The position numbers and the translations under genes are program-made. Shown here piece after piece: positions 11,330-45,065 of a stretch of DNA of 64,000 nucleotides (its first letter is position 1; the number at the start of each line of letters is the position of its first letter). The notes below the pieces were generated by a model that was not told the DNA's origin, did no database searches, and saw only the letters and a program-made list of their open reading frames with translations. This stretch comes from a virus (lineage: Duplodnaviria > Caudoviricetes), in the IMG/VR virus record IMGVR_UViG_3300037400_004242. The stretch is one strand, 5' to 3'.

Positions 11330-12637
11330 TTGAAACTTAGTTCAAATACAAAGAAGAAAACTATTTCATTTTACTCATATCATTTAAATCATGAGAAATA
11401 TGAACAGATTGAAAATTTAGCAAAACAAATTCAAGCATATCAAAATTTCATTTCTGAGATTTACTACAACACTTATTTTCAGAAACAAAAGATTTCTTGT
11501 GGTAAATTCATCACAGAAATGAAAATATATCGTGATAAGGAATTTTCCTCTTCATTTTTTCAACAGATATGTAAACAAGTATATGAAAAATATGAAAAGA
11601 AAAAACCTCCAAAACAGCAAGTGGTTTTCAAGAAATTATCCTTTGTTGGTATCAATCTAATGACAAAACCTTTTATTGAAGAAAGCAACAACAAATATAC
11701 AAACGGAATTATCAATTTTAATATACCTAAACAAGGAGTAATTTGTATTCCATTTAGATATTCAAAAAAGTATCATGGTGATTTGTCAGATATTACTTAT
11801 TCCATGACAGGTGCAAACAAATCTCAATTTCAAAAACTGTATACTTGTACATTGTTAGGTAAAGATAAACTAAAAATTACTATTGTCGAGGATGATAACA
11901 GAACATATACTACATCAATCAATCACATCGAAGGTATAGATGTAAATGTAAAACATAACCTTTTACAATGTTCTGATGGATTTTCTGTAGATTATGATAG
12001 AAAATTTGTTACTAAAATTATTAAACAAAGAAAAAAGTATGATAGAATTGTATCTACCAAAATGAAAAGAAACATTGACCATACAATGACTGAAAAACAA
12101 TATCATTTAAGTAAGAAAAATTCACGAAGAAGTATTTCTATGGTGGAACAATGTTTGGTAAAATTATTTAAGCATTGTAATAAAAATGGTATTGACCATT
12201 TAGTTTTTGAAGATTTAGGTAAGTTTACAGGTAGACTAAAAATTACCAACAAAGAATTTGATGTTAACTATAAACGACTAATGTACGCAGTTAAACTTGT
12301 AGATATTAAAAACATTGCAGAACGAATTGGAAAGAAATATGGAATCACAATATCTTTAACCAATCCTGAATATACAAGTCAAGAATGCAGTTGTTGTCAT
12401 CATATTTCTAAAAAGAATAGGCAAACGCAAGAATTGTTTAAATGTGAAAATTGTGGATTTGAATTAAATGCAGACTTAAATGCATCCATCAATATAAAAA
12501 ACAGGATTCTCTCAAACGTTTTGAGAGAATCCTGTCATCAGGAAATTGAACCAAATAAATTCATTCCAATTTACAAGAACTACGAAGAATTTAAAACAGC
12601 ATACATAGAATTAATTAAACAAAATACCGTATCTTGA
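11330..12637 (+). CDS. tnpB: TnpB RNA-guided nuclease (IS200/IS605/IS607 family)
   Basis: RuvC-I GIDVN, RuvC-II VFEDL, Zn ribbon TSQECSCC..FKCENCG, RuvC-III NADLNASINI; catalytic D/E/D intact. Confidence 0.92.
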   Translation: MKLSSNTKKKTISFYSYHLNHEKYEQIENLAKQIQAYQNFISEIYYNTYFQKQKISCGKFITEMKIYRDKEFSSSFFQQICKQVYEKYEKKKPPKQQVVFKKLSFVGINLMTKPFIEESNNKYTNGIINFNIPKQGVICIPFRYSKKYHGDLSDITYSMTGANKSQFQKLYTCTLLGKDKLKITIVEDDNRTYTTSINHIEGIDVNVKHNLLQCSDGFSVDYDRKFVTKIIKQRKKYDRIVSTKMKRNIDHTMTEKQYHLSKKNSRRSISMVEQCLVKLFKHCNKNGIDHLVFEDLGKFTGRLKITNKEFDVNYKRLMYAVKLVDIKNIAERIGKKYGITISLTNPEYTSQECSCCHHISKKNRQTQELFKCENCGFELNADLNASINIKNRILSNVLRESCHQEIEPNKFIPIYKNYEEFKTAYIELIKQNTVS

Positions 12638-13934: not shown

Positions 13935-16643
13935 ATGTTAAATAAAGATATAACATTTTCATTAGATAGTTACGATAAGAAAAAATTCAAGCATGAAGTA
14001 TATGACCACAAGGATGTTTTCTATAGTAGAGAATATATTTATAATTTTAAATTTACAGTAAATATAGATAAAAATGAAATGCCAATTAATCATTTAATTA
14101 TTTATCGTAATGGTGAACCATATAACAATTGTAAGATTATACAAGTTGGGAATAAATCTTATGAGGTTAAAGATGATGTATGGATTCGTTATGGAAACAC
14201 ATGTTATGGTGTAGATGTCGTTCTTGAAGGTGGAAAAACATATCATAATTATTTCTATTTGAAAATTTTACAATCATATCAGCCAAATGATATTCGTTTT
14301 ATAAGTTTTGCAACGTATGGATTACATGAAAATTATTCTATGTTGGATGTAATTGCAAACATTCAGACAAAATATCAAATTGATAGAGTTTTATTATATG
14401 AACATATTTGTCCATTGACAGAGATAGATGAAAAAAGTCGTATATCTAAAATAAGTGAAATGAATGAAAGATATGATTCCAAAGAAATTAAATGGAATTA
14501 TTTGGGAAAAATGGATTTAATAAATCATCAATATCGTTTTCGTTATATGTTGTTTGATACGTCATTAACTGAGAATCGTACAGTATTATATAAGGCTGTA
14601 GTCGTAACAACAAATGAAGTTCGTAGAAGTGCAATTATGTCTACCATTATTAAACCTAATACAATGTCTGTTAATATATTTACATATATGAATACAGAAA
14701 CAAAAGAAAGATACGATATATATGGTGGATGTGTAGGACGTATTGATGCAAAAATTGATGAATACGACAATCCTGAATATAATGGCAAGATTTTTCAACT
14801 TTTAATAGATAAAAGAGACGATGAACAAAATTATTTAAAGTTGCTTGTCGGCGATGATTATAAATTTGAAGCAGATAATTATCATGTTGAATATAAAAGA
14901 AAGAAATTTAATCGTGTACAAACAAATCGTGACCCTAATATTTTTGAAATTTATGGTGATGGATTGGCTACAAAAGTTATTAATGAGGAAAGAGATTTAT
15001 ATCGTAGAGATAATTGTAGATTTTTAGTAACTTTATATTGCGGTGAAGATACTTTTGTTTCATTTAAAATTACTCCATTAAATGATAATAATTTGGCTGT
15101 TAACACGAATAAGACAGAAAATAATATTGTAAAATATTCTTATAATGGTGAATCCAAGATTATGGATAAACAATATTTGGATAAGACTGTAGATGTAAAT
15201 GCAATTCAAGGATATTATACATATAATAGAAAAACAGAAAATCTAATTTTTACAAATATTGATACAAAGGAACAACATATTACAATTATTCCTGATAAGC
15301 CAAAAGAATTATTGTTTCAGGAATTTGATTACATTACATATAACGATAAATATTTTTTCTTTGTCAACTTAGATAATAAAGGAATCCATATTACACGTTA
15401 TGATGGCGTTAATATTGATAAAATTGAATATTTTACAGAGATTATTAAGAGTTCATTAGATTGGATAAAGTCTCAGCAAATATTAAGTTTTGATAAAAAT
15501 AATAATTTAAATTTGAAATTTATATCTTCTAATGGCAGTAATTTTTTAAAGAAAATTGTTGTAGAAAATAATGATTTATCAGTTATTGATTATAGTGATA
15601 TGTTAGTAAATGTATTTAATGATATTCGTAAGCAGATGTTAAATTATGTTGATAATTTAAATTCTGTGACCGTTGGAAAAGTCGAATATATTATTAAAGC
15701 ATCAAATGTTTATGATACATTAGAGCATAAATTTGAGGATATGGGATATACGGATTTTAATTTGAAATTTACGACGCAATATTTTACATATCAAATCAAA
15801 TTCCCAATAGATGTTAAATTTTTAAACAAGACAACAAATGTTTATGTTCGTTTTCAAACGTCTATGACTGTTACTTGTAGAGAAGATGTTATTTTTTATG
15901 AGACGAATTATAGCTTAGGAAATCCAAGATTCGATATTGATATTGATAGTATTAATTTAACATATCATTATACAGATAATGGGAAAAATTTAATTCCTCA
16001 AGTTGGGTATGAAAAATTAAATCAAAAATATTTCTTGAAATTTAGTCAACCTGTAAACACATATACAAAAGAAGATTATGCAATTTTTAAACGTTGCGAT
16101 ATATATAATGGTGGAGCTAGTCTTTATAAGATAAATCCCGAAGATGTATATGGAAATGGGACAAAAGAAAAAACATTTAGGTATTCAGATTTATGTAGAC
16201 TACGTATTTTTATGCTAAATTATAAAGAGTACATGATTATGCGTTTTATGGGTGATAAATGCATGATGACAGTTGTTAATGTAGAATTGAAAGAGCAAAT
16301 ATCACAAGAAACTATTACAACAGATATGTATTTCGATAGTTTGTTCTATTTTACGAAAGAACAGCTTGTATCATTAGATGATTTGTTAAGTAGTGCATAT
16401 TTATATGATTCTGTAAAACGAAAAATGTATATTTGTGCATTGAGTGATTGTTATGTATTAGCTGTTGGTGGAACATATGATACATCATTTCATAATATGG
16501 AGAAATCGACTAGTTTAAGTGGTATTCCGTTAGATAATATGAAAACATATTTGTCTGAATATGAATTTAGTTATCCATTAAACATTAAAAATCGTAATCA
16601 TTATTTAAATGATATAGTCTTTAGTGAAGGGGTATATTCATGA
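13935..16643 (+). CDS. Large beta-rich hypothetical protein (possible structural/accessory tail protein)
   Basis: 902-aa ORF, SD gaaagga; no motif recognised. Confidence 0.6.
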   Translation: MLNKDITFSLDSYDKKKFKHEVYDHKDVFYSREYIYNFKFTVNIDKNEMPINHLIIYRNGEPYNNCKIIQVGNKSYEVKDDVWIRYGNTCYGVDVVLEGGKTYHNYFYLKILQSYQPNDIRFISFATYGLHENYSMLDVIANIQTKYQIDRVLLYEHICPLTEIDEKSRISKISEMNERYDSKEIKWNYLGKMDLINHQYRFRYMLFDTSLTENRTVLYKAVVVTTNEVRRSAIMSTIIKPNTMSVNIFTYMNTETKERYDIYGGCVGRIDAKIDEYDNPEYNGKIFQLLIDKRDDEQNYLKLLVGDDYKFEADNYHVEYKRKKFNRVQTNRDPNIFEIYGDGLATKVINEERDLYRRDNCRFLVTLYCGEDTFVSFKITPLNDNNLAVNTNKTENNIVKYSYNGESKIMDKQYLDKTVDVNAIQGYYTYNRKTENLIFTNIDTKEQHITIIPDKPKELLFQEFDYITYNDKYFFFVNLDNKGIHITRYDGVNIDKIEYFTEIIKSSLDWIKSQQILSFDKNNNLNLKFISSNGSNFLKKIVVENNDLSVIDYSDMLVNVFNDIRKQMLNYVDNLNSVTVGKVEYIIKASNVYDTLEHKFEDMGYTDFNLKFTTQYFTYQIKFPIDVKFLNKTTNVYVRFQTSMTVTCREDVIFYETNYSLGNPRFDIDIDSINLTYHYTDNGKNLIPQVGYEKLNQKYFLKFSQPVNTYTKEDYAIFKRCDIYNGGASLYKINPEDVYGNGTKEKTFRYSDLCRLRIFMLNYKEYMIMRFMGDKCMMTVVNVELKEQISQETITTDMYFDSLFYFTKEQLVSLDDLLSSAYLYDSVKRKMYICALSDCYVLAVGGTYDTSFHNMEKSTSLSGIPLDNMKTYLSEYEFSYPLNIKNRNHYLNDIVFSEGVYS

Positions 16644-17692
16644 GCCATGTTTTACAAATTCAAATGACAAATCAATGTAATTTAAAATGTGAATATTGTT
16701 ATATTCATCAAAATAATGATAAAATGTCGTTTGAAATGTTAAAACAACAAATTAAATATGTAAAACAATTATCAAACAGAATAGACGATGATTTTGATGG
16801 AAAATATGATGTTACATATTTTGGTGGGGAGCCGTTAATTGAATATCAAAATATATTAAAATTTGATGAATATTTAAAACAATCATTAAATGTGCAACAT
16901 TCTTTCATTCAAACAAATGGTATTTTGTTAGATAAAGAAAAAATTAAACAATTAAGAAAAAAGAATATTTATATTGGAATTAGTTGTGATGGTTGTAATG
17001 ATAAGAATCATATATATATTGAAAAAATTTTTCAAAATAAATGGTTGCCTGTAGAAGCAAAAATGATGATAAATAAGTATAACGTTTTTGACTTAATGAA
17101 AAATGTTATATATTTTTATCGTCAAGCGATGAAAGTTAATTGTGGAAATTTATATATAGATGTTTCTTTTGTAAAGGACAATACATGGGATAAACATTCT
17201 ATTATAGAATTAAGACAACAATTAAAAAATTTGTATGATTTTATGATGATGAATTATAGAGATTATCATCGTTGGATTGATATTGGATTTGTTAATAGAA
17301 TTTGCGCAAATATTTTGAACAAAAAACGAAATTATATTTGTTTTGCAGGAGTGAATGGATATAATTTAACTCCGGATGGAATTATTTATCCATGTGCTAG
17401 ATTTTATACAAATCATAAATATCCATTGTTTGATTCAAATAGTTATAAATTTTATGATAAAAATATAGATATAATAAAGCATTGGAATCGGACAAAAAAT
17501 GATAAATGTATGAATTGTGTATTGAATCAATTTTGTAATCAAGGATGCTTATATTCTCAAATTAATAACAATGGAATTATTGATATGTATTGTGATGTAT
17601 TAAAGTCATGCTATCATATGGTAACAACTTTGTATAAAACGATGAAAAATGAATATAATGTGAATATATTAAAGAAAGTTGGTAAGATTTAA
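16640..17692 (+). CDS. Radical SAM/SPASM-domain protein
   Basis: CNLKCEYC, FGGEP, QTNG; CFAG..GIIYPC..CMNC..FCNQGC..YC. Confidence 0.9.
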   Translation: MSHVLQIQMTNQCNLKCEYCYIHQNNDKMSFEMLKQQIKYVKQLSNRIDDDFDGKYDVTYFGGEPLIEYQNILKFDEYLKQSLNVQHSFIQTNGILLDKEKIKQLRKKNIYIGISCDGCNDKNHIYIEKIFQNKWLPVEAKMMINKYNVFDLMKNVIYFYRQAMKVNCGNLYIDVSFVKDNTWDKHSIIELRQQLKNLYDFMMMNYRDYHRWIDIGFVNRICANILNKKRNYICFAGVNGYNLTPDGIIYPCARFYTNHKYPLFDSNSYKFYDKNIDIIKHWNRTKNDKCMNCVLNQFCNQGCLYSQINNNGIIDMYCDVLKSCYHMVTTLYKTMKNEYNVNILKKVGKI

Positions 17693-18757
17693 ATGGAAAA
17701 ACCACCTATTAGTGTTTCAATAAATATGGGAAGTGCTTGTAACTTTCGCTGTAAATATTGTTTTGAGGTAAAGAATGGTGCAGTTAATGATTCTAAAAGA
17801 CTTCAACAAAAAGTGAAAGAACGAGTTATTGATGTTATTAAATTATTGACTGAAACAAATAAAGTTCGTATTGAATTTTGGGGTGGTGAGCCGACAGTAT
17901 ATTTTGATGACATTTATGAAATTATTGAAGCAACGAAAGCATATGAAGAAGTAACCTATTTTATGTATACAAATGGTTCTTTGGTTGAAAAATATAGTAA
18001 AGAATTGCTTCAAATAAAAAATGATGTTGGGCATCGTTTTCAAGTACAAGTTTCTTATGACTATCATGATTTAAAAAATAATCAACGCATTCAATTGAAT
18101 AAGACAGTTGAAGAAACTGAAAAAATGGTATTAGATGCGATTCATTTTTTTGATGATAATGATTTTTTCTTCGGAACAAAAACAACTTGTACAATGCATG
18201 ATTTAGAAGAGAATTTATTTCATCAATATATGAATTTTGAAAATTTAAATAAAACATTAAAACATAAAGTAAATTTTAATCCAACACCTGATACATTAGG
18301 TGTTGGAAATGTTAATTATAATAAAATAGAAAAACAATTTATTCAATTGTTAAAATATTTTGTTAAAAATAAAAAGTTTGGGAAAACAGGATTCATGTGG
18401 TTTGATATGCCATCTAATGCAGATTGTACAGGTGGAATACATTCGTTTCAAATAGATGTTGACGGCAGAGTTACATATTGCCATGGATGTTTATATAGTA
18501 AGAAAGATTTGTTTTACACTTCTGTATTTGATGATAATTTTCTTCATAAAGTAGATTATAATTATCTTGCAGTATATAGAAAATACAAGAAAAATAGTCA
18601 ATGTTCAGATTGCAATTCACAATTCTGTTTCAGATGTAACGCAATTAATAGTGATGGAAACATAGAAGATTGGGATAAATCAAATATTCCTGATGTTTGT
18701 AAATTATATAATAAAATTTCAGATTATATCCGCGCCTATTACAAAATAACTCATTAA
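17693..18757 (+). CDS. Radical SAM/SPASM-domain protein
   Basis: CNFRCKYC, WGGEP, YTNG; CTGG..YCHGC..CSDC..FCFRC..VC. Confidence 0.9.
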   Translation: MEKPPISVSINMGSACNFRCKYCFEVKNGAVNDSKRLQQKVKERVIDVIKLLTETNKVRIEFWGGEPTVYFDDIYEIIEATKAYEEVTYFMYTNGSLVEKYSKELLQIKNDVGHRFQVQVSYDYHDLKNNQRIQLNKTVEETEKMVLDAIHFFDDNDFFFGTKTTCTMHDLEENLFHQYMNFENLNKTLKHKVNFNPTPDTLGVGNVNYNKIEKQFIQLLKYFVKNKKFGKTGFMWFDMPSNADCTGGIHSFQIDVDGRVTYCHGCLYSKKDLFYTSVFDDNFLHKVDYNYLAVYRKYKKNSQCSDCNSQFCFRCNAINSDGNIEDWDKSNIPDVCKLYNKISDYIRAYYKITH

Positions 18758-18819
18758 TTTTACGATGTATTTTATTTTTCTAATAGAATAGGTATTGAAA
18801 AATTTGGAGTTGATAATAT

Positions 18820-20397
18820 ATGGCGATATGTACGGACACAAAATATGTAGAGGGATTTTATCAAATTGTAGAACCTCCACAATTTTTAAAAGACATGTTT
18901 CCAATTTGTAGACCTTTTGGTGACCCCGGTGATGACAAAAGTTATGAATTCGGGAGTAGTTATTGGAGCGGGTTCGATTCTACTTCTCGTGATGAAGCAT
19001 CAAGTCGTGGATTAAGTAATCGTAAAGGTCGTTTAAAAGATTCTTTTAGTGTTACAGATAAAGTTACGAATAAAGATTGGAACTGTGCAATTGTAAAATT
19101 GAAACAAGAATTTGCTATTCGTTGCGGTTTTAAGCATAATTGGATTCCATTTGTAGAACAAACGGGAGATTTTGGATTATCCAATCATTTAGGATATTTC
19201 CGTGATGGTATTAAAGGCGGAAGTGATGGTGATAGTGACCCAACGCAAGGCGAAAAAACGGATATTGTATATCGTAGAGATATGCAAAAAATATACTTAG
19301 ATATTATTCGTTTGCTAGACTATGAAGTTCCAATGTATTCCGTAGAAGATGGAAGCAAAAATCCTCGTTTCCCAGAGTTTAGAGGTATTTTTTCTAATGA
19401 TTATGGTAAAGTTGGGGACTACAATTCTATTTTAAAAGAAATTGTTGATATTGATGATGCTGATAAATTTTTAAAACAAGGGAATAATGTGTTTTTACCT
19501 CCTGATAATAAAGCATCTGAGAAAAAATGGAAATATTTTCATTTAAATGATAATGTTATTGGCTATCCTGGTGAACCAGCTTCTTCTTGTGCAAAATATG
19601 AAGGAAAATTAGAGAGTTTTGGTGATAACTATCCACCTGGTGGTTCAATTAACATTGACCAGCTAAACGATTGGGAAAGTCGTTATACATTAGGTACTGA
19701 TGCATATGATTTTAAAAAAATGACCAAGAAACGTATTTTGCAATTCATTGGTGCGTCTCAACCTTGGTATCGTAAGTCCGATTCATTATTGGATTGGGAC
19801 GATGGTATTTTTATTGATTATTGGCAACCAAAAAGAGATACTGATGATTTCGCATACGCTCAAGAAATAGTTCCTAATACATATTATCCATATGGAAATA
19901 AGGATTATACAGAAGATGGTGGAGCAGGTGGAAAAGAACCAAAGCCATCAGCATTATATAAAGCTGTACAAGAATTTAGAAAGAAATTTATAAATCCTGC
20001 AAAAGAAACTACAGATAATGATTTATTAGTTTCTGCCAAAATTTCAAAAACAGCTACAGTTGATAGAGATTTATATGGTAATCCAATTACACAAACTGTA
20101 GAAGAAGATGCATCATTTTCAGTAGCATATGTTATGAGACATGCTTATACAGAGTTTCAAACGGTAGATAAATATGGCGATGATGGAAAACTAATTAGTA
20201 GAATGACAATCGGCGGTGATAAAATTATCGTTGATGCTAACTCTGTCGCAAATGTGTTTATGAAAACAATAAATAAAATTTCAGATATTTGCGTTTGTAA
20301 CTGCAATTATTGTTCTTGCTTTGGTAATGAAGTTACATGCTTATGCTATGTTGTTAAGGTAACAGGTTGGTGCTATTCATACATGTATGTATATTAA
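18820..20397 (+). CDS. 525-aa protein with C-terminal Cys cluster, putative rSAM substrate/virion protein
   Basis: Ends in CVCNCNYCSC..TCLC..WC; preceded by TATTTW-N5-TAGA at 18773..18787. Confidence 0.7.
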   Translation: MAICTDTKYVEGFYQIVEPPQFLKDMFPICRPFGDPGDDKSYEFGSSYWSGFDSTSRDEASSRGLSNRKGRLKDSFSVTDKVTNKDWNCAIVKLKQEFAIRCGFKHNWIPFVEQTGDFGLSNHLGYFRDGIKGGSDGDSDPTQGEKTDIVYRRDMQKIYLDIIRLLDYEVPMYSVEDGSKNPRFPEFRGIFSNDYGKVGDYNSILKEIVDIDDADKFLKQGNNVFLPPDNKASEKKWKYFHLNDNVIGYPGEPASSCAKYEGKLESFGDNYPPGGSINIDQLNDWESRYTLGTDAYDFKKMTKKRILQFIGASQPWYRKSDSLLDWDDGIFIDYWQPKRDTDDFAYAQEIVPNTYYPYGNKDYTEDGGAGGKEPKPSALYKAVQEFRKKFINPAKETTDNDLLVSAKISKTATVDRDLYGNPITQTVEEDASFSVAYVMRHAYTEFQTVDKYGDDGKLISRMTIGGDKIIVDANSVANVFMKTINKISDICVCNCNYCSCFGNEVTCLCYVVKVTGWCYSYMYVY

Positions 20398-20410
20398 TAC
20401 AGAAAGGAAT

Positions 20411-20674
20411 TTCAGTAACCCACGAATAAATTCGTGGGATTGTGGTAGAAATATCACAATCCTTTGCTGAATAGCCTAAGTCTTAACTGACTACGTTGTT
20501 ATCGTTATCACACCCTAGTGCGTATGCTTTAACGCTAGGCTCTGTAAAAGTTCTAAGAGGTAGGAACAGTCAACCAGACGTAGACCGATTACGGCAAGCG
20601 ATTATAACATTGGCTAAGAGTAACCAACTCAAGAATAAAGTTATTTATAACTTTAGGAAGGAGGTAGACTTGTT
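20411..20674 (+). ncRNA. IscB omegaRNA (HEARO-like) scaffold; the guide would be the upstream flank
   Basis: TCAGTAACCCACG start, tagcctaagtcttaactgactacgtt, ctag..ctaggctctg, aacattggctaag, immediately 5' of a PLMP ORF. Confidence 0.85.
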
Positions 20675-21013
20675 ATGTTAGTCTACGTATTAAATAAAAA
20701 TGAAAAACCTTTAATGCCTTGCAGTCCCAGAAAAGCTAGGATACTTCTTAAAGAAGGTAAGGCAAAAGTAATTAGACGAGAACCTTTTACTATACAATTA
20801 CTCTATGGTTCTAGTGGATACAAACAGAAAGTAAATCTCGGCGTAGATGCTGGCAGTAAACATATAGGTTTATCTGCGACTACCGAGAAGAAAGAACTTT
20901 TCGCCAGCGAAGTTAAATTAAGAACTGACATCGTAGATTTATTGTCTACGAGACTTCAGTATAGAAGAAGTAGAAGAAATAGAACTACTATAAGAAGGGG
21001 AGACTTAATATGA
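20675..21013 (+). pseudogene. iscB: Truncated IscB (PLMP + RuvC-I + bridge helix/RRXRR only)
   Basis: MLVYVLNKNEKPLMPC..ARILLKEGKA..PFTIQL..LGVDAGSKHIG..RRSRRNR; HNH and RuvC-II/III absent; open frame with SD ggaggt. Confidence 0.9.
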
Positions 21014-21324
21014 CAATGTATGCAATTATTATAACTTTAGACGCTGATACATTATCTAAAGTATACACAGGAAATAGTATAGCAAGTGCTTATACAGATA
21101 TTGAGGAAATACTAAGAAGTTATGGATTTTCTCATAAACAAGGAAGTGTATATTTTGGAGATGAGGGAATAGACGCTGTTCATACAGTTATTGCAGTACA
21201 GAAACTATCAAAAAAATATGATTGGTTTGTACCAAGCGTACAAGATGTGCGAATGATTAGAATAGAGGAAGATAGTGATTTGATGGTGGCGATTAGATTT
21301 GCATATTTGGAATCCAATAAGTGA
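21010..21324 (+). CDS. vapD: VapD family (Cas2-like) endoribonuclease
   Basis: MYAI..LD..L..Y..AY.DI..L..GF..QGSVYF..WF..SV.DVRMIRIEE.SDL; ATGA overlap with the iscB fragment. Confidence 0.88.
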   Translation: MTMYAIIITLDADTLSKVYTGNSIASAYTDIEEILRSYGFSHKQGSVYFGDEGIDAVHTVIAVQKLSKKYDWFVPSVQDVRMIRIEEDSDLMVAIRFAYLESNK

Positions 21325-21393
21325 ACAATATATGTATTCTAAGCCTGTAAAAGTATTAGTAAAAAAATATAAAATGGTTAATAGAAAGGAGGA

Positions 21394-21437
21394 GCGTTGT
21401 TTCCTCCCATGGTTAAAACCATGGGAGGAAACAACGC
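21394..21437. repeat. Perfect 21-bp inverted repeat at the IscB element end
   Basis: gcgttgtttcctcccatggtt-aa-aaccatgggaggaaacaacgc. Confidence 0.95.
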
Positions 21438-21448
21438 AAAATATATGA

Positions 21449-21715
21449 ATGGAGAATAAAACTTTAACAGAAGAAGAAAAAAAAGATTTTATGGAAAAAA
21501 TGGCGAATATAATTAATTATATGGAAGCCACAAGAAATATTATTTATCCTATGGATAAGATATTGTATCAAACAATTAATAATATTTTATCAATGTATAT
21601 GATTAGTTTAGGAAGAAAAGTTGGTATGGAATATGAAGAACTAGAAAAAAAGTATTCCAAAGATGAATCTGAAGTTGATGATATTATTGATAAAATTAGT
21701 AAGGAGACAGAATAA
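21449..21715 (+). CDS. Small helical hypothetical protein of the rSAM module
   Basis: 88-aa ORF coupled to the next gene. Confidence 0.65.
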   Translation: MENKTLTEEEKKDFMEKMANIINYMEATRNIIYPMDKILYQTINNILSMYMISLGRKVGMEYEELEKKYSKDESEVDDIIDKISKETE

Positions 21716-22353
21716 TGGGAAAACAAATGTTATTTTTTTGCGGAATAATAACAATTAATAATGTTAATTTTTTGGTAAATCCTTTTACAAAAATTGAGGG
21801 TGAACCTGTTCTTCTGAGCAGAGATGCATATGTTCAGCTAACTGCTGAAGCATATGATTTCGTCACAAATGTTTTAGATTTATCACATAGAGAACCACAA
21901 TGCAAAGTTTATATTGAATGTTCTCCAACAGAAAAAGAAATTTTTGACAGAGACGATTTGAAAATTAATGAAGAGTTAAATAATGAGTCTCCTGAAGATA
22001 AACTTGATGCATATAAAGAAAAATGTATTCGTTTGATGAATGAAATGATTTCAAATCAACTTATGATTTCTAATTTTGAATTATATCATTTCTTTAAATT
22101 GAATCATTATCTTGAATCTAAAGGTTTCTTTATTACAGATGAAAATCGTGAAGAAAAGTATTTGGAAGTTATTAATAGTGGTGATGCAGAAGCACTTGAG
22201 AAACTTTCTGAATATTTGGATTCATTAGATGAATTTAATGCGATTGATGATATTTATATGCGTTATAAGGAATTTAAAGACAAGGTTAAGGTTGCTAAGA
22301 ATGAACAAGAAATTAAAGATGCATACATCGCCATGTCAAAAGCAACATTTTAA
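21715..22353 (+). CDS. Hypothetical protein with ITDENREEKYLE motif (recalled from phage rSAM loci)
   Basis: GFFITDENREEKYLEVINSGD motif; the family association is from memory and not searched. Confidence 0.6.
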   Translation: MGKQMLFFCGIITINNVNFLVNPFTKIEGEPVLLSRDAYVQLTAEAYDFVTNVLDLSHREPQCKVYIECSPTEKEIFDRDDLKINEELNNESPEDKLDAYKEKCIRLMNEMISNQLMISNFELYHFFKLNHYLESKGFFITDENREEKYLEVINSGDAEALEKLSEYLDSLDEFNAIDDIYMRYKEFKDKVKVAKNEQEIKDAYIAMSKATF

Positions 22354-23149
22354 TATTGTTTATATGACTAATGAATCATATTTGTTTCAAACATATGTTT
22401 CTATTAGTTCATTGAAGATGAATAAACATCATAACATCAGTTATGATGTTTATTTGTTATGTATTGAAATGCAAGATATTGGAGATATAAAAAAATTAAA
22501 TGATGAGGATTTTTGTATTCATTCAATTTATATTGAACGTAATATTTATAGATATGATGCTAATGCAGGTGTTGTATATTATAAAATGATTTTACACGAA
22601 TTATTGGATGTGGATACAGTATTTCATATTGATTCAGATACAGTTGTTATTGATGATGTTTCAAGTATTTTTGATTATAATTTAACCGATTATTTTTGTG
22701 GTGGTGTAAAAGATAAAATTAAAGGATTGAAATACTTTAATGCAGGAAATGTGTTGTTAAATTTAAAAAAAATACGAGAAACATTATATGATAATGAATA
22801 TACAATGTATGATTATTTTTGGCAATTAGATAAAGAATTAAGAGATAAAAAAGGATTCCTTTGGGAACAAGATGTTTTTAATAAGGCTTTTGAAAATAAG
22901 ATTTTATATATTAATTATGGCTATAATTTTTTGGTGAATACTTATAGCCAATATAAGTTTAATGATTTAAGTAGAATTTATGGAGAAAAAGTAGATTATA
23001 AAAAAATTAAAATATTACATTTTGCAAGTCATCCAAAACCGTGGATAAAAACAAATTTATTTGGTGAAATTTGGAAAATGTATGCAGAAAATAAAGTAAA
23101 TAAAGAATTAGAACAGAAAATATTGAGGGTGGCGTGTCGTGAGTATTGA
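22229..23149 (+). CDS. Glycosyltransferase family 8 (true start probably 22319 or later)
   Basis: HIDSDTVV (DxD), YFNAG, WEQDVFN, ILHFASHPKPW. Confidence 0.9.
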   Translation: MNLMRLMIFICVIRNLKTRLRLLRMNKKLKMHTSPCQKQHFNIVYMTNESYLFQTYVSISSLKMNKHHNISYDVYLLCIEMQDIGDIKKLNDEDFCIHSIYIERNIYRYDANAGVVYYKMILHELLDVDTVFHIDSDTVVIDDVSSIFDYNLTDYFCGGVKDKIKGLKYFNAGNVLLNLKKIRETLYDNEYTMYDYFWQLDKELRDKKGFLWEQDVFNKAFENKILYINYGYNFLVNTYSQYKFNDLSRIYGEKVDYKKIKILHFASHPKPWIKTNLFGEIWKMYAENKVNKELEQKILRVACREY

Positions 23150-24293
23150 TAGAAAACAAGCATTATTAATGCAATTTATGTTAGGTTCAAATTTAAAAGT
23201 AAAAAAAAGAGATAAAGATAAAATATTAGTTACTTGTAATATAGCTACCCGTCAAGGACACCAATATTTATGGGGAGCAGAAAAATATTGTATGAAAATT
23301 TGTCATCAGTTGGCAAAAAAATATGAAGTACATTTGTTTCAACAAGCAGAAAATTTTTTAAATTGTAATGATATTATTGTGCATCCACATATTTATAATT
23401 TTTTTTCTCGTTCAAAATTATTAGAAGTTGCTTTTAAGGCTTCTATGGTACAACCAAGATGCATTTTATGTAATGCAGGAACAGGTTCACAAGCGTTATT
23501 TTGGACAATTGTAGCAAAAATTATTGATGTTCCAATTATTATGTTTTTACATAATGAACCAACTTTTATAAAAGATACAATTTCTCCTGAATGGGGTATG
23601 TATTATGTTCGTGGTCAAACAATTATGAAAGATAAAGATATGCTGTATGATTTCGTCTTAGATTATTGTGATGAATTAGCATTTTTATTACCGCAATATA
23701 TAGATAGTAAATATAAAGATAAAACTTATGTGTATCTTAATTGTATTGATATTCCTAACAATGTAGATGTTGAATCAGATAGAAAAAATTTGTTGTATGT
23801 TGGTAGAATTAATACCGATGTTAAACGTACACAAATATTGTTAGATTGGGTTAAAAATACAGAATATGCTTGTAAAGTATGTGGCTATAATTATCAAGAA
23901 GATGGGTATCTTGATATGAATCAATATCAAAAATATAAAAATATAAATTTTTTAGGATACCATAAAAATATGGATAACATTTATCGTGAATCTAACGTAT
24001 TAGTTATTCCATCTTTATATGAAGGACTTCCAACAGTTGCATTAGAAGCATTATCTTATGGTATACCAATTGTTGGATTTAAAGAATGTAAATCTATGAA
24101 TGATATTATTCAGGATGGATATAATGGATGGCTAGTAGATAATAACTTTTCAGATGTTATGGAAAAAGTAATGTCTATAAAAGATATGAGACAAATTCGT
24201 AAGAATTGCTTAAATGAATCGAAAAAATATGATATAAATAATATTATGAAAACAATTTTTAAATCAATAGAGGATGTTAAATGTGAAGATTAA
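23139..24293 (+). CDS. Glycosyltransferase family 4 (GT-B)
   Basis: WGAEK, LYVGRI..K, PSLYEGLPTVALEALSYGIPIV, GYNGWL. Confidence 0.9.
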   Translation: MSIDRKQALLMQFMLGSNLKVKKRDKDKILVTCNIATRQGHQYLWGAEKYCMKICHQLAKKYEVHLFQQAENFLNCNDIIVHPHIYNFFSRSKLLEVAFKASMVQPRCILCNAGTGSQALFWTIVAKIIDVPIIMFLHNEPTFIKDTISPEWGMYYVRGQTIMKDKDMLYDFVLDYCDELAFLLPQYIDSKYKDKTYVYLNCIDIPNNVDVESDRKNLLYVGRINTDVKRTQILLDWVKNTEYACKVCGYNYQEDGYLDMNQYQKYKNINFLGYHKNMDNIYRESNVLVIPSLYEGLPTVALEALSYGIPIVGFKECKSMNDIIQDGYNGWLVDNNFSDVMEKVMSIKDMRQIRKNCLNESKKYDINNIMKTIFKSIEDVKCED

Positions 24294-25206
24294 TTTAATT
24301 TACTATTTATATGAAGTGAATGGTGCATTTACTTCATTTGAAGATACATTTTATAATTTAAGCAAGTTTACAAATCATAATGTTAATTTCTTTATTTTAT
24401 ATGAAGATAAATATATGTTAGCACAATTTAAAAAATATCTTCCAAAAGGCTCAGGAATTTGCTTATTAGAATTACCAAAAACTCCAGATAAAGGAACGAA
24501 TTTATATAAACGTGTTGCAGTTAGGGAAGTATATCATACAATGGTATATAATATAAAAGGTGACATTAATATTATTAGTTCTGAAGTTATTCGATTACAA
24601 AAAGCAAATAGAATTAAACAGAGTGCAAGTCAAGAAATGTTGTTATATCCTGCATTTATATATAAAGAACAAGGATTAGATAAAACTTTTTACAATGATG
24701 AACAAGAATATATTAAAAATAATGATGTACTTGTAATATGTAATAAATTTAATACAAAGTATGTTAATAATTCATTTGTTTGGTATATGCAATTTTCAAA
24801 AGAAAGAATTGAACAATTAAAAAAACTTGTTTCTAATGAAAATGATGTTTTATGTGCTGAAGAATATTATAAAAATAAAATGAATTGTAAAAATATTGAA
24901 CCGTTTTCATATAAGAAATATGAATATTATAGATATGATAAAAAAAATGAAACAAATTGTTATACAGATGATGGAGCAAGATATTATGAAAATATTGGAA
25001 AATTAATGTTTGAATTTGTTTTACTGGGAAAAGAATCATCATATTCTCCAAGAAATAAACAATTTGATGATGGATTGACAGAATTCATGAATTATTTGGG
25101 ATACGATGATAATCAATTATATTGGTGGAATCATAAGGATATTTCTTATTTAGAAAAAAGATTGTTTATGAACAAAGAAAATAAATTGTTATCTTTATTT
25201 AAATAA
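24274..25206 (+). CDS. Hypothetical protein in the glycosylation operon
   Basis: Overlapping operon ORF; no clear motif. Confidence 0.65.
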   Translation: MLNVKINLIYYLYEVNGAFTSFEDTFYNLSKFTNHNVNFFILYEDKYMLAQFKKYLPKGSGICLLELPKTPDKGTNLYKRVAVREVYHTMVYNIKGDINIISSEVIRLQKANRIKQSASQEMLLYPAFIYKEQGLDKTFYNDEQEYIKNNDVLVICNKFNTKYVNNSFVWYMQFSKERIEQLKKLVSNENDVLCAEEYYKNKMNCKNIEPFSYKKYEYYRYDKKNETNCYTDDGARYYENIGKLMFEFVLLGKESSYSPRNKQFDDGLTEFMNYLGYDDNQLYWWNHKDISYLEKRLFMNKENKLLSLFK

Positions 25207-25226
25207 AATTGGGAGAAGGTTCATCA

Positions 25227-26816
25227 ATGAAAATTCTTGGAATACAATGTTATCAAGATTATAATGTAACATATTTTGATACAGTTACAAAAGATTTGAA
25301 ATATACAGAACTTGAAAAATTATTGAAGAAAAAACATTTTTCTTTTCATTCTGATAAAATAGATTATATGCCTGAAATTGATAGAATTTACGATGATAAT
25401 TTAAGAAATAATTTATATAAATGTCAGCGTATTATTCATGAAGAATTAGGTGTAAATAGATTTGATGTTGTTTGTTGGAATTACAAAACTTTTAAAGATG
25501 GATATTTAAAACAAGAATCTTATGATTTTGTAAAAATGTTAGAGCGTTGTGATGTTTTGAAATTTCATCATCAAGAGAATCATGTATTACCTACGATTTT
25601 TGAATATGATTTAAAAGATGCATTATGTTTTTCAATTGATGGAAAAGGTGACGGGAACCATGCTTTTTATCATTGGAAAGATAATAAATTAAATTTGTTG
25701 TTTCAGGAAAAAGCATTTTCTTATGGAATGTTTTATGAAGTCTTAGCATGTTATTTCTTAGATAAGAAGAATCAGTATGAACAAGGGTTAGAAGGAAAAT
25801 ATATGGCTTATGCAGGTTTGTCTAATAAATTCCTTGAACTTGAAAATATTGATGCTTTTATGAATGAAGTAAAAAAGACAAATTGGAATATATGGGAAGA
25901 TAAGATTGAAGTAGAAAAATTTATTTATAATTATTTAGATAAAATGTCAGAAAAATATGATAAATATGATTTGGCATATACTATGCAAAAATTATGGATA
26001 AATAATGTTATGGCTGATATAGCAAAGTATCGTCATGAAAGTGAAAATTTTGTAATTTCAGGTGGATGTGCATTAAATTGTATGTTAAATTATGAGATTA
26101 TAAAAACTGGATGGTTTAAAAATGTGTATTATACACCTATTGTTTCAGATGTTGGACAATCATATGGAGCAGTATTAAATTATTTATTGCATTATTCTCC
26201 TGAAAATTTAAAATTTGTAGATTCTGATGATTTTTCTATTACAGAAGGTATTCGAGATAAAAAATATTTTGATTCTATTTCTTCTAATTTTCATACATAT
26301 CAAATAGAAGAAATTTCATCAATATTAGAAAACGATGGAATTGTTGGAATATGTCGTGGAAATATAGAAATGGGACCTCGTGCATTAGGGAATCGTAGTA
26401 TATTGGCTTCACCTTTTCATAAAGAAATGCATGATAAATTAAATAAAATAAAAGGAAGAGAATGGTATCGTCCGTATGGAGTTATTGTTCCAAGAGAATA
26501 TTTATCACGTTATTTCGATATTGATGTTGATGTAAAATATATGAATATGTTAGCATATCCAAAAGACAAAGATGTACTTTTGGGAGCGCAACATACAGAT
26601 GGAACAATTCGTATTCAAACTGTTTCAGATGAAGATAATCGTTGGTTACATGATTTATTATTAACTTTTGGACAAAAAACAGGAGTTCCAATTTTAATTA
26701 ATACATCATTTAATGATGGTGGTATGCCAATTTTTAATTATATGAAAGACATGTATCGTATGTATAATGAAAAATTAAATGCTCTCGTTTATGAGAATAA
26801 GATGGTGTCAAAATGA
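25227..26816 (+). CDS. Carbamoyltransferase (NodU/CmcH/TobZ family)
   Basis: HHQENH, SIDGKGD, EGKYMAYA, SGGCALNC, EMGPRALGNRSIL, KGREWYRPY, LINTSFN. Confidence 0.92.
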   Translation: MKILGIQCYQDYNVTYFDTVTKDLKYTELEKLLKKKHFSFHSDKIDYMPEIDRIYDDNLRNNLYKCQRIIHEELGVNRFDVVCWNYKTFKDGYLKQESYDFVKMLERCDVLKFHHQENHVLPTIFEYDLKDALCFSIDGKGDGNHAFYHWKDNKLNLLFQEKAFSYGMFYEVLACYFLDKKNQYEQGLEGKYMAYAGLSNKFLELENIDAFMNEVKKTNWNIWEDKIEVEKFIYNYLDKMSEKYDKYDLAYTMQKLWINNVMADIAKYRHESENFVISGGCALNCMLNYEIIKTGWFKNVYYTPIVSDVGQSYGAVLNYLLHYSPENLKFVDSDDFSITEGIRDKKYFDSISSNFHTYQIEEISSILENDGIVGICRGNIEMGPRALGNRSILASPFHKEMHDKLNKIKGREWYRPYGVIVPREYLSRYFDIDVDVKYMNMLAYPKDKDVLLGAQHTDGTIRIQTVSDEDNRWLHDLLLTFGQKTGVPILINTSFNDGGMPIFNYMKDMYRMYNEKLNALVYENKMVSK

Positions 26817-27568
26817 AACATATACCGTTGATTGAATATCATTTGGTGAATCATTGCAATTTAAATTGTAAAGGCTGTGCTCATTTTGCACCATTAGCAA
26901 AGCCTTGGTTTGCAAATATAAATAAATTTGAAAAAGATTTAAAACAGTTGTCTTCTTTAGTGATTATTGATAAATTAACTTTATTCGGTGGAGAACCATT
27001 ATTGCATGATAACATTAATGATTTTTTAATAATTGCTAGAAAAATTCTTCCGAATACAGATATTAGTATTTTAACAAATGGGATTTTATTGTTGAAAAAA
27101 TTAGGTTCGCTTGCAAAAGTAATGAAAGAAAATAATATATATATGGATATTACTTGTTATCCTATTCCTGTTAAATATGAATTAGGGCTAAAAATGTTGA
27201 AAACGCTTAAAGTTCCATATCGTATATATAATGATATGGAACGTGTAAAAACATTAAGACATCATTTTCTTTCTCATAAAAAGGAAAAAAATAAATGGGA
27301 ATGTTTGATGATAAATTCAAATTCAGTTCAATTAAGAAATGGGAAATTATATATATGTCCTTTACAAGCATATATTGATATTTTTAATGAGTATTTTCAT
27401 GAGAATTTTAAAGTAGACAATAATGATATTTTAGATATTTATCATTGTACGGATGATGATATATTAAATATGTATCATAGGAAAAATGATTTTTGTGAAT
27501 ATTGTAGAGAACCAATAGAAGGGAATAAATATTCTACATCTAAAAAGGAGAAATCAGAATGGATGTAA
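26813..27568 (+). CDS. Short radical SAM protein
   Basis: HCNLNCKGCAHFAP, FGGEPLLH, LTNG, C-terminal FCEYC. Confidence 0.88.
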   Translation: MKHIPLIEYHLVNHCNLNCKGCAHFAPLAKPWFANINKFEKDLKQLSSLVIIDKLTLFGGEPLLHDNINDFLIIARKILPNTDISILTNGILLLKKLGSLAKVMKENNIYMDITCYPIPVKYELGLKMLKTLKVPYRIYNDMERVKTLRHHFLSHKKEKNKWECLMINSNSVQLRNGKLYICPLQAYIDIFNEYFHENFKVDNNDILDIYHCTDDDILNMYHRKNDFCEYCREPIEGNKYSTSKKEKSEWM

Positions 27569-28380
27569 AATATTGTTTAAAAACACAAATTGTAGATGAA
27601 TGTAATTTAAATTGTAAAGGTTGTGACCATTTTGCTCCATTAGCAAAACCTTGGCATCAATCTTTACCTGATTTTGTTGATATGATAAAAACGATTCGTA
27701 ATACAGTTGGAGATAACATAAAAGAAATTGAATTATATGGTGGGGAGCCATTATTACATCAACAATTATATGAAATGATTTTAGTTCTAAAAGTTTTATT
27801 TGGAAATAAAATTGTAATTTCAATTGAAACAAATGGAATTTTATTGGACAAATTTTTACAACATCATAAAGATTTAATAGATGATAACAAAATAGAATTT
27901 AAAATTACAGAATATAAAGCAACAAAAGGAATTATTGATAAATTAAAGAAAAAATATCTAAATAATGATATATATCAAGCGGCTATGTTAAAAAATGAAA
28001 TTAAACTAGCAGATGATATAACTTATAAAGAAAATATGTTTAATGTGAACATAAATAAAACAAAAGAAACAGACACAAATAAAATTTTAAATATATATAA
28101 AAATTGTTATTGCAAGAGTGAAGAAGAAGATTCTTTATGTTTGAGAAATTGGGTATTGTCTCCTTGTCCTATGACAATGTGTTTGAATATTTTTGATAAT
28201 TTTTTCAATGAACAATATGATTCTGAAAAAAATCATATAATAGTTACAAATAATTTATCTAAAAAAGATTTGGATAAAATGGCACATTATCCATGTGATT
28301 TTTGCAAAAGGTGTGGAAATGTTGTTTATGGAATACCATATGGCATTTCTAAAAAGGAAAGGGTAGAATGGCAGATATAA
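27559..28380 (+). CDS. Short radical SAM protein, paralog of 26813..27568
   Basis: ECNLNCKGCDHFAPLAKPW, YGGEPLLH, ETNG, FCKRC, SKKE..EW. Confidence 0.88.
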   Translation: MDVKYCLKTQIVDECNLNCKGCDHFAPLAKPWHQSLPDFVDMIKTIRNTVGDNIKEIELYGGEPLLHQQLYEMILVLKVLFGNKIVISIETNGILLDKFLQHHKDLIDDNKIEFKITEYKATKGIIDKLKKKYLNNDIYQAAMLKNEIKLADDITYKENMFNVNINKTKETDTNKILNIYKNCYCKSEEEDSLCLRNWVLSPCPMTMCLNIFDNFFNEQYDSEKNHIIVTNNLSKKDLDKMAHYPCDFCKRCGNVVYGIPYGISKKERVEWQI

Positions 28381-29300
28381 AATTTTATATTATTATTCCA
28401 ACATATAATCGTTTCGAGAAAATAAAAAATGCAATACAAAGTGTATTGCGACAAACATATGATAATTATCATATCATTATAGTGGATGACCATTCAAATG
28501 AAGATAATTATATGAATTTAAAAAAGTATATTGATAATAATGATAAAATATCATATTATTATTTAACTAAAAATATGGGACATTGTTATGCTAGAAATTT
28601 TGCCTTGAAACAAATTATAAAATTAGATAGTTGGATAAAATATTTAGATGATGATGATGTAATATTACCAAATTGTTTACAAGATATATATGAATATATT
28701 AAAGAAAATAAAAATTTAAATGTTATCACGACAGATTATAATATTTTAGATGAGCATAATAATATTATTAAATGTATGCACCCAAATTATAATGTAGAAA
28801 GCGTATTTAACGGAAATCTAGATACATGTTGTATTTGTCATAAATATTCATTATATCAACAACTGGGTGGATGGGATACGAAATTGTTTCGTATGGCAGA
28901 TGATGATTTTTTCTTTAATTATATTTCTAATGGAAAATATGGATATTTAAACAAAATAACATCTGTATTTTATAGAACTAATGATAAGTCAAGAGTAACT
29001 AAGCAAGTATCTAATTTAAAATTTGTAAAATATATAGCTGATAAATATGCATATTTTAATAAAAAATGTTTGATTAAAACAGAAGAAAAATACATAGATA
29101 GTATTAATAATGCTGAATATAATATTGAATCGTTTATGAAATTTGATATTAATAAAAAATTAACAAATGATTATGATTTTATTATTATGATTAATGATAA
29201 TGATGTTATTAATGAAATTTTTCAACATTATTGGAAAACAAAGGAAAAACATTTTAAAATTAAAAATTCATTATTTATAGAAAATAAACTAAAAAAATGA
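28368..29300 (+). CDS. Glycosyltransferase family 2
   Basis: IIPTYNR, IVDDHS, N.G...ARN, YLDDDD, LGGWD. Confidence 0.9.
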   Translation: MADIKFYIIIPTYNRFEKIKNAIQSVLRQTYDNYHIIIVDDHSNEDNYMNLKKYIDNNDKISYYYLTKNMGHCYARNFALKQIIKLDSWIKYLDDDDVILPNCLQDIYEYIKENKNLNVITTDYNILDEHNNIIKCMHPNYNVESVFNGNLDTCCICHKYSLYQQLGGWDTKLFRMADDDFFFNYISNGKYGYLNKITSVFYRTNDKSRVTKQVSNLKFVKYIADKYAYFNKKCLIKTEEKYIDSINNAEYNIESFMKFDINKKLTNDYDFIIMINDNDVINEIFQHYWKTKEKHFKIKNSLFIENKLKK

Positions 29301-42266: not shown

Positions 42267-42323
42267 TGATAAAGAGGAACAATGAAATGTTCCTCTTTTT
42301 TATATAATATTTTGGTGATAAGT

Positions 42324-43604
42324 ATGTCTAAATTTGTAGATTTAACAAATCAAGTTTTTGGAGATTTGACGGTTATAAAACGTGCAGAAGATAGATGTGG
42401 TAGAACAAGATGGTTATGTAAATGCTCTTGTGGGAAAATTGTGGAACGTTATGCTTATGATTTAAAACATGGAAATACGACTTCTTGTGGATGTAAGAAA
42501 AAGAAAAAAATATCAAAATCGGAAACAATACATGGGATGTCAAAAACAAAATTTTATAAAACATTTCATGGTATGAAACAAAGATGTTATAATCTAAAAA
42601 ACAAAAGATACAAAAATTATGGTGGAAGAGGAATTATTGTTGAATGGAAAAATTTTTCTGAATTTTATCATGATATGTATGATTCATATTTAGAACATGT
42701 TAAAATATATGGAGAAAAAAATACGACAATAGATAGAATTGATGTAAATAAAAACTATAGTAAAGAGAATTGTCGTTGGGCTACATGGGAAGAACAAGCA
42801 TTAAATACAACAAGAAATATTAAAATAACTTATCACAATAAGGAATATACAGTAGAAGAAATTAGCAAGATGACGAATCTTTCTAGTAAATGTATTTATG
42901 AGAGATTATCTTTAGGATGGGATATAGAAAGAATTTTTAAGAAAGAGAAAAAGAAAGCATCAACTTCCAAAGAAATTTTGATAACATATCAAGGAGAAAC
43001 ACATAATCTTACAGAGTGGAGTAAAATTATGAATATGTCTGTAGGAAAAATAAGTTATCGGTATCATTTAGGATGGGATGCAGAAAAAATATTTTATTAT
43101 CAAAAAGAGACAAAAATAAAAGAAAAAACATTTCAAACGTATAATGATTATAAAGATGAAATTATTCTTGTCACAGATAAAATTCATAATTTAATTCATA
43201 AAAAATTTGGGGCACTTACAGTAATTGCAAGATTGACGAATAAAAATGGAAAAATACGATGGCTTTGTAAATGCGATTGTGGAAATTATTGTGATAAATT
43301 AGGAAACAGTTTAACAACACATCATACAACTTCATGCGGATGTAAAATTAATCGAAGAGGAATTACTAAAATATATCATCAAGAATATATTGTATGGAAT
43401 AATATAAAACAATGGTGTTATAATTTAAAAAATCCGAAATATCAATATTATGGTAAAAAAGGGATAAAAATGAGTGACGTATGGAAAAATAGTTTTCAAA
43501 GGTTTTTAAATGATGTAGGTAAGAAACCTGAGCATACAATTTTATCTAGGAAAGACGAATTTCAAGATTTTACAAAAGAGAATTGTTATTGGAAGGGAAT
43601 ATAA
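42324..43604 (+). CDS. Multi-module HNH-like homing endonuclease
   Basis: Two FG.LTV..WLCKC.CG..TSCGC modules; YGGRGI..TIDRIDVN..Y..ENCRWAT plus a degenerate second copy. Confidence 0.8.
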   Translation: MSKFVDLTNQVFGDLTVIKRAEDRCGRTRWLCKCSCGKIVERYAYDLKHGNTTSCGCKKKKKISKSETIHGMSKTKFYKTFHGMKQRCYNLKNKRYKNYGGRGIIVEWKNFSEFYHDMYDSYLEHVKIYGEKNTTIDRIDVNKNYSKENCRWATWEEQALNTTRNIKITYHNKEYTVEEISKMTNLSSKCIYERLSLGWDIERIFKKEKKKASTSKEILITYQGETHNLTEWSKIMNMSVGKISYRYHLGWDAEKIFYYQKETKIKEKTFQTYNDYKDEIILVTDKIHNLIHKKFGALTVIARLTNKNGKIRWLCKCDCGNYCDKLGNSLTTHHTTSCGCKINRRGITKIYHQEYIVWNNIKQWCYNLKNPKYQYYGKKGIKMSDVWKNSFQRFLNDVGKKPEHTILSRKDEFQDFTKENCYWKGI

Positions 43605-45065
43605 ATGCCAAATATTATTGATTTGACAAATCAAGTTTTTGGAGATTTGACAGTTATTTGTCGTGCAAAAGGAAAGAATCATCGTGCATATTGGTTATGC
43701 AAATGTAAATGTGGAAATGAGAAAATAATCAATGGTACGAATTTAATTCATGGAAAAACAAAAACTTGTGGGCATTGTAAAATAAAAGATATTCCTTCAA
43801 AAGGAATGTATGGTATTCATTCTGTTTTTCATACATTGGAAGAGTGGAGTAATATTACAGGATTATCTGTTAATGATGTAAAAGAATGTTTTGAACAGCA
43901 TATTTCATTTTTTGATTTTATGAAACGAAATCAAACGATAGATGAAACAGGAAATAGATATGGAAAATTAACAGTTATAAAACAAGTAGAAAATGATAAA
44001 TTCAATCGTGCATGTTGGTTATGTAAATGTGATTGTGGAAATGAAATTGTTGTAGAAGGAGCACAATTAAGAAGTAAAGAATATGCGTCTTGTGGATGTG
44101 AGAAAAAGAATCGTTTGAAAGAATTAACACAAACACATGGAAAATCAAAAACATCTACTTATCAATCTTGGCTAAGTATGAAAAGTAGATGTTATAATCG
44201 TAATAATAATCGGTATGAAAATTATGGAGGTCGTGGAATTAAAGTTTGTGAACAATGGAAAAATAATTTTGAACAATTTTTAAAAGATATGGGAGAAAAG
44301 CCTAATATTCATTATTCTATTGATAGGATAGATGTCAATGGAGACTATGAGCCGTATAATTGTAGATGGGCAACGAATGCACAACAAGCGAATAACAAAC
44401 AAAATTCAAATCACAATTATAAAAAAGAATTAGAAGTAATTTATTGGAATATTCATAAACGATGTAACGTAAAAACATCGAAGAATTATAAAAATTATGG
44501 TGGAAGAAATATTAAATTAGAATGGAAATCATTTATTGATTTTTATCGTGATATGTTAAAATCTTATGTAGAACATCGTGAAGTTTATGGTAGAAAAAAT
44601 ACATCCATAGATAGAATTGATGTGAATGGAAATTATTGTAAAGAAAATTGTAAATGGAGCACTTTAAAAGAACAAGCAAATAATAAAAGAAATACGATTG
44701 TTTTAGTGTATAAAAATATTTCTCATACTTTGTTTGAATGGAGTAAAATAGTAGGTATCAAGCAAAATGTTTTGTATCGCAGGTATCAATTACATTGGAA
44801 TGTTGAAGATATTTTATATAAGCCTGTAAAAAATAGTGTTTCAAAAGAAACTCTGTTGGAAAAACATACTTATAATTCATGGAAAGACATGTTAAGATAT
44901 GCTAAAAGAAGAAATATAGATGTTCAAGTATCGTGGAATATTTATAATAATTTTTTTTATGATATGGGATTAAAATTTGAACATTCAAAATTGACAAGAA
45001 TAGATAAAACAAAAGGATATTCAAAAGAAAATTGTATTTGGAAAAGAAGTGATAAGAATGGATAG
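43605..45065 (+). CDS. Multi-module HNH-like homing endonuclease, paralog of the previous gene
   Basis: Near-identical 5' DNA (DLTNQVFGDLTVI); two Cys modules and three IDRID..NC.W modules. Confidence 0.8.
   Translation: MPNIIDLTNQVFGDLTVICRAKGKNHRAYWLCKCKCGNEKIINGTNLIHGKTKTCGHCKIKDIPSKGMYGIHSVFHTLEEWSNITGLSVNDVKECFEQHISFFDFMKRNQTIDETGNRYGKLTVIKQVENDKFNRACWLCKCDCGNEIVVEGAQLRSKEYASCGCEKKNRLKELTQTHGKSKTSTYQSWLSMKSRCYNRNNNRYENYGGRGIKVCEQWKNNFEQFLKDMGEKPNIHYSIDRIDVNGDYEPYNCRWATNAQQANNKQNSNHNYKKELEVIYWNIHKRCNVKTSKNYKNYGGRNIKLEWKSFIDFYRDMLKSYVEHREVYGRKNTSIDRIDVNGNYCKENCKWSTLKEQANNKRNTIVLVYKNISHTLFEWSKIVGIKQNVLYRRYQLHWNVEDILYKPVKNSVSKETLLEKHTYNSWKDMLRYAKRRNIDVQVSWNIYNNFFYDMGLKFEHSKLTRIDKTKGYSKENCIWKRSDKNG

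Follow-up and report, generated by a model that had tools for sequence, protein, structure and literature searches.

A phage that carries a vapD gene between the two ends of an IscB/omegaRNA transposon raises the question of how the gene came to be there, and whether it works together with the IscB and omegaRNA sequences around it. The locus lies in a stretch of 64,000 nucleotides of viral DNA (IMG/VR record IMGVR_UViG_3300037400_004242), hereafter the window. A preliminary description had offered two readings of it: a non-autonomous element with captured cargo and, as the headline, a ribonucleoprotein in which the IscB fragment and the omegaRNA guide or neutralise VapD. The first is upheld here by junctions with donor DNA and by an empty insertion site, with the qualification that the cargo is probably no active toxin. 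The element is likely to be a non-autonomous, probably immobilised passenger cassette derived from an IscB/omegaRNA (ISC) element, in which vapD is the part under selection and the rest are relics.

The element resides in a gut jumbo phage. With 29.5% G+C the window is AT-rich; its genes include a tail sheath gene and two that are very long, and the best-matching run is from bovine gut. A 223,622-bp contig also records both proteins, the IscB-fragment ORF and the VapD ORF. Relatives of 175–281 kb in IMG/VR (L100, L101) share the gene order, with the insertion absent at the place of the element. That place is inside a block (16640–29300) of genes for radical SAM enzymes, a 525-aa protein with a Cys-rich tail, glycosyltransferases and a carbamoyltransferase, which is kept in related jumbo phages. 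The window also holds a TnpB/Cas12f1-like gene at 11330–12637 (435 aa in the call for L014).

The whole element is an ISC/IS200-IS605 derivative of 1,034 bp (20411–21444, plus strand, as are the genes, RNA, segments and flanking motifs given below). This extent, as first proposed, proved exact: in contigs from three further studies, position 20408 is joined directly to 21443, the 1,034 bp being absent, with a 2-base ambiguity and no target duplication. The empty allele was seen in runs X2, X4 and X5, that is, in three of four runs, so that the filled allele of the window is the minority form. In a pig-gut strain (X7), a copy fills this site and retains iscB sequence upstream of 21374. Just outside the element is the target-adjacent motif ATGA (21445–21448), four nucleotides before the start of an 88-aa gene; ATGA stands 3' of nearly all related element ends, and the insertion is of the ISC type, next to a 4-bp motif and without target duplication. 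The 5' flank (20395–20410), which from known IscB biology we take to be the would-be omegaRNA guide, agrees with the empty site; it also contains the ribosome-binding site that belongs to the 88-aa gene downstream, and the insertion has cut that gene off from it. Neither a promoter above chance nor a plus-strand terminator was found within the element, which also lacks a transposase gene and an antitoxin gene, in agreement with the earlier remark that no VapX-like antitoxin is visible. Searches of IMG/VR and JGI contigs for the vapD gene or the left junction, and of GTDB genomes, INPHARED and plasmids for the end patterns, returned no matches. An assembly artefact was judged unlikely, as the exact proteins occur in JGI and Logan assemblies (possibly of one sample) and a contig of X2 spans the left junction.

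The omegaRNA and the end hairpin on its side occupy 20411–20628. A HEARO scan, suggested beforehand as a check, matched the model over its full length, scoring 102.3 bits where the gathering score is 83 (E 6e-21), and this end of the element is intact in the window. The RNA had been called full-length-looking, which is true of the model match but not of the sequence itself, since 11 nt are missing after 20537. These are present, between two direct repeats, in copies from four other runs, and in intact elements they form a helix strand, the 5' strand of the last large helix.

An N-terminal IscB remnant follows (20675–20988), comprising codons 1–105 with the PLMP motif, RuvC-I and the bridge helix. 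The ORF that contains it continues in foreign DNA to 21013 (20675–21013, 112 aa), is preceded by a strong ribosome-binding site, and matches RRXRR (E 6e-37, model positions 1–108 of 174) and the IscB model NF040563, the latter at positions 1–107 of 314 only. Thus, of the open 112-aa IscB N-terminus initially reported, residues 1–105 are IscB and the last seven are read-through of foreign DNA. Of the C-terminus, the last 13 codons survive as a tail (21374–21416, in frame at 21375–21416), as had been noticed; the parental sequence upstream of this tail is found in X7 and L109. HNH, RuvC-II/III, WED and TI are gone and the fragment stops inside the split RuvC fold, so that in place of a full IscB with RuvC I–III and HNH there is a derivative with no working OMEGA nuclease. 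The IscB part of the window differs from the L019 element at 2 of 312 nt, both amino-acid changing, and from X2 by two synonymous differences; dN/dS is uninformative on such numbers, and with two differences from L019 the remnant has had too little time for decay to show. Run X5, an RNA run, has a full-length copy of IscB as well as the empty site; vapD is not covered, and the contigs are uninformative on expression.

The L019 element (L019:5326-7712) is itself unusual, its near-identical IscB being in parts of 201 and 243 aa that flank a LAGLIDADG gene of 370 aa, which may be a homing endonuclease gene borne by an intron inside iscB; the omegaRNA of this element looks mosaic. Partial IscB matches of the same end family were also seen in L157, L181, L184, L195 and L241; these were rejected as cargo carriers because their ORFs (336–352 aa) are of IsrB-like size.

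Between remnant and tail lies a foreign 385-bp piece (20989–21373) of another phage family's vapD locus. It has 87–95% nucleotide identity to donor loci (L001-L009, L015-L018, L104-L107), with sharp ends at both junctions, and consists of the end of an upstream gene, a ribosome-binding site, vapD and the opening 14 codons of the gene that follows. The donor family carries PhoH and RNA ligase genes on contigs of at most 126 kb. The IscB match stops at 20988 and foreign DNA starts at 20989; the left junction is without microhomology, and the right junction may have 2 nt. As first described, the stop codon of the iscB fragment overlaps the start of vapD through ATGA, but because some donor alleles begin ATG-ACA, this overlap is accidental. 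In X2, where the window site is empty, one 436-bp contig spans the left junction; a second contig, which overlaps it and has a vapD near-identical to that of the window, runs on into donor sequence, the link between the two being a 30-base overlap only. As X2 thus has the junction and donor sequence together with an empty site, the left junction formed before the right junction of the window; X2 may hold either a longer cargo or a deletion resident in the donor. In more than 20 loci with the same vapD family, none has an IscB fragment or omegaRNA beside vapD; a full IscB element lies 2.5 kb upstream of vapD in three donor loci. Conversely, vapD was found within 3 kb of none of 80 phage IscB loci. 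Capture targeted by the omegaRNA was considered and rejected, since the cargo has no match to the omegaRNA guide.

Both IS200/605-type end hairpins are present, as had been stated, and one of them is altered. At the foot of the target-side hairpin, 34 of 41 distinct ends have GANA on the minus strand, the predicted DNA guide of the transposase TnpA; its position was placed from the conservation of the ends and from the IS608 pairing rule, by which GANA is predicted for the target TCAT. The window has neither the imperfect hairpin nor the guide at this end: the hairpin (21394–21437) is a perfect 21-bp palindrome and the predicted guide reads TCCT. Among the 41 ends, this combination occurs only in two vapD carriers, the window and locus L108 (Fisher p 0.0012 for the association of palindrome and vapD, the ends being related to one another); within the closest end subfamily the palindrome is found in 2/2 vapD carriers against 0/2 others (p 0.33). 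The inner stems of the two palindromic ends differ, and the canonical end in X5 follows the window sequence up to 21425, which suggests that the palindromes arose as separate events. In an element of G. stearothermophilus, TnpA excision needs the guide and is abolished by its mutation (PMC10055086); by analogy, guide loss may have left the window element immobile.

The cargo gene (21010–21324) encodes a 104-aa VapD-family protein. This assignment, already made in the preliminary description, is borne out by a match to VapD model NF041506 (E 1e-14, below the cut-off) and by a monomer model with the expected VapD/Cas2 ferredoxin-like fold (pLDDT 87; best structure matches 6ZN8 and 3UI3). Its activity is another matter. 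Thr9 aligns with the catalytic Asp7 of 6ZI0 and with the Asn of the D7N mutant 6ZI1, while the catalytic Ser (Ser46) is kept. Of 163 homologues, 131 have Asp in this column. In one supported clade, made up of the window protein, its donors and a sister family of 101 aa, the residue there is Thr, Ala or Val, and the loss of Asp predates capture. VapD is no longer toxic once it bears the D7N mutation, and it is the loss of a catalytic residue that defines VapW antitoxins, the VapW described being without the Asp (PMC11980593). Judged by its residues, the window protein is probably inactive as an RNase toxin, and the label of RNase or toxin given to it at first probably does not hold; its relatives from donor phages are likewise without the Asp. 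Like VapW it is a VapD homologue with a mutated catalytic residue (Asp to Thr), but window and donor loci each hold a lone VapD-like ORF, with no active cognate vapD beside it. Asp-less VapD proteins form a widespread phage clade, always encoded alone (L001-L018, L104-L107, L111-L118, with the P0015 family in L010-L013).

An exact search with the omegaRNA-side end led to three viral loci: L110, with a full IscB; L109, a 260-bp empty miniature; and L108. The last is an element of 515 bp (L108:3373-3887, minus strand) in the 281-kb genome of a related jumbo phage, with the same ends as the window element enclosing a 92-aa VapD; a copy of this type lies at L122:2386-2900. It has lost iscB; what remains of the omegaRNA end is 74 nt, the opposite end is retained, and the 98%-complete genome of its phage is without IscB but does have a TnpA. 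The L108 VapD is 34% identical to that of the window, is close to the H. pylori enzyme, has Asp7 and Ser intact, and falls in a different well-supported clade. Its donor is a third phage family (L120, L121), at 86–88% identity over about 385 bp including non-coding flanks. The window and L108 are two independent vapD captures, and among 98 element starts surveyed they are the only ones with vapD. One other IscB-family shell surveyed (L254) carries unrelated cargo, so capture is not limited to vapD; at L254:500-2384 (minus strand) and in L176, this shell retains a canonical end around an interior of foreign DNA and a 204-aa ORF of no known family.

The interior of the window element has been replaced, its omegaRNA bears a lesion, one end has been converted, and the arrangement recurs with a different VapD. 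An ISC-family element inserted by ATGA, without duplication, in a jumbo phage, and its nuclease core was exchanged for a 385-bp piece from the vapD locus of another phage family. The exchange presumably came about by illegitimate recombination between phages with a common host, and the dispensable interior may have offered a landing pad within a transcribed operon. vapD could be expressed from the phage operon or from the element. Loss of the DNA guide would block excision by TnpA and fix the cargo, and vapD would be the selected part, with the IscB fragment and omegaRNA as relics. From the two cases, we infer selection for vapD.

It is possible, if unlikely, that no selection is involved and the locus is neutral debris: element interiors would take up random DNA, and two captures and two palindromes would be coincidental. 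The junctions are indeed ragged and a neighbouring gene is cut, other shells hold other cargo or none, the window allele is in the minority, and correction of quasi-palindromes is a known mutational route. Set against this is the fact that both cargo carriers of the end subfamily hold an intact vapD from different donors, at a chance below 0.001 each (0.0004–0.0008 per event for a random 385-bp donor-genome fragment to hold the whole gene). Moreover, the L108 cassette is identical in ten loci and unchanged on 20 contigs from several samples, and lone vapD genes are known here from three phage families or more.

Much less probable is a still-mobile addiction or competition cassette, its active nuclease spreading by TnpA supplied in trans or homing by IscB supplied in trans. 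A TnpA gene is present in the genome of a related phage (G001) and the omegaRNA-side end is intact, but the target-side guide is lost. The same left junction beside an empty site in X2 implies that the unit existed elsewhere, and the omegaRNA guide would match that empty site; yet each vapD cassette was met at one site only, which for L108 is true of all places shown. The protein, furthermore, is without the catalytic Asp, and no antitoxin gene accompanies it.

A complex in which IscB residues 1–105 and omegaRNA bind, guide or neutralise VapD is scarcely credible: the open fragment with its ribosome-binding site, the ATGA overlap, the left junction shared with the independent run X2 and the contacts of PLMP and bridge helix with omegaRNA in full IscB (PMC9640706) are outweighed by the raw cut from the donor that explains the overlap, the 11-nt lesion, a fragment that ends within RuvC without WED and TI, a VapD with little to neutralise, the lack of IscB–vapD linkage in 80 phage IscB loci, and a twin in L108 that kept vapD while losing IscB and most of the omegaRNA. 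Modelling the IscB fragment in complex with two copies of VapD gave a score of 0.00, which counts neither for nor against such a complex.

The passenger cassette has parallels among known systems. Like ISC/IscB-omegaRNA (OMEGA) elements, it has HEARO at one end and hairpin ends (PMC4810608; PMC10055086), ATGA-side insertion without duplication, the IscB N-terminus and tail, and no internal tnpA. Unlike them, it is without HNH, RuvC-II/III, WED and TI, contains a foreign gene and a damaged omegaRNA, and has a perfect rather than imperfect target-side hairpin. As in PATEs and mobile insertion cassettes (MICs) of the MIC231 type (PMC6199540), non-autonomous ends have outlasted the internal gene, and as in MICs an unrelated passenger gene stands between IS ends with no transposase. 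PATEs encode no protein, however, and the MICs described derive from IS231 of the IS4 family, whereas this element is IscB-derived with IS200/IS605 ends; it differs from both in cargo taken from other phages and in mobility that is apparently lost. The protein resembles the VapD/VapW family (PMC11980593; PDB 6ZI0, 3UI3, 9KAN) in its predicted fold (TM 0.7–0.75) and VapW in its missing Asp. In contrast to VapW it keeps the catalytic Ser and stands alone on a phage, with no active vapD adjoining; both its sequence and its fold are nearer to those of VapD chains than to those of the VapW chains in 9KAN. In the portions of the literature available, vapD is not described as cargo of IscB elements and the texts naming both are general reviews, consistent with the initial statement that no IscB-fragment/VapD arrangement was known. 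New here is a second jumbo phage in which the same ends enclose another VapD and the target-side hairpin has likewise become a perfect palindrome.

What VapD does in the cell, and what it acts on, is still unsettled (PMC11980593). By analogy with VapW, the likeliest single role for the Asp-less VapD of the window, though one held tentatively, would be that of a non-toxic decoy binding host VapD-family toxins; otherwise it may interfere with Cas2, retain some nuclease activity or have no role. Since the L108 VapD keeps Asp7 and Ser, one decoy function cannot cover both proteins, and the intact protein must act in some other way, which weakens any single-function account. A wider reading, though a rather doubtful one, would make IscB-type shells in gut jumbo phages repeated capture-and-lock sites for VapD-fold genes of other phages, with correction of one end to a palindrome fixing the cargo and the Asp-less clade serving as decoys against host VapD or Cas2.

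These findings remove a tempting reading of the window element, that of an RNA-guided toxin, and suggest that OMEGA shells can ferry genes between unrelated phages, after which a one-step end mutation fixes them, a simple route to domestication. Several gut phage families have lone VapD homologues, one whole clade of which is Asp-less, and with dead copies borne by phages one can ask directly whether VapD toxins are a defence against phage; if true, the decoy reading would mark VapD out as an anti-phage system.

Two observations concern related sequences. The same end family surrounds TnpB or deletion derivatives, on the opposite strand, in L171, L199, L222, L223 and L226. At 42282–45065 of the window and in L132, long ORFs with repeated CxC-type motifs and no Pfam match resemble, at up to about 80% in translation, DNA adjoining the TnpA locus of a related phage; these are likely to be homing endonuclease-like genes.
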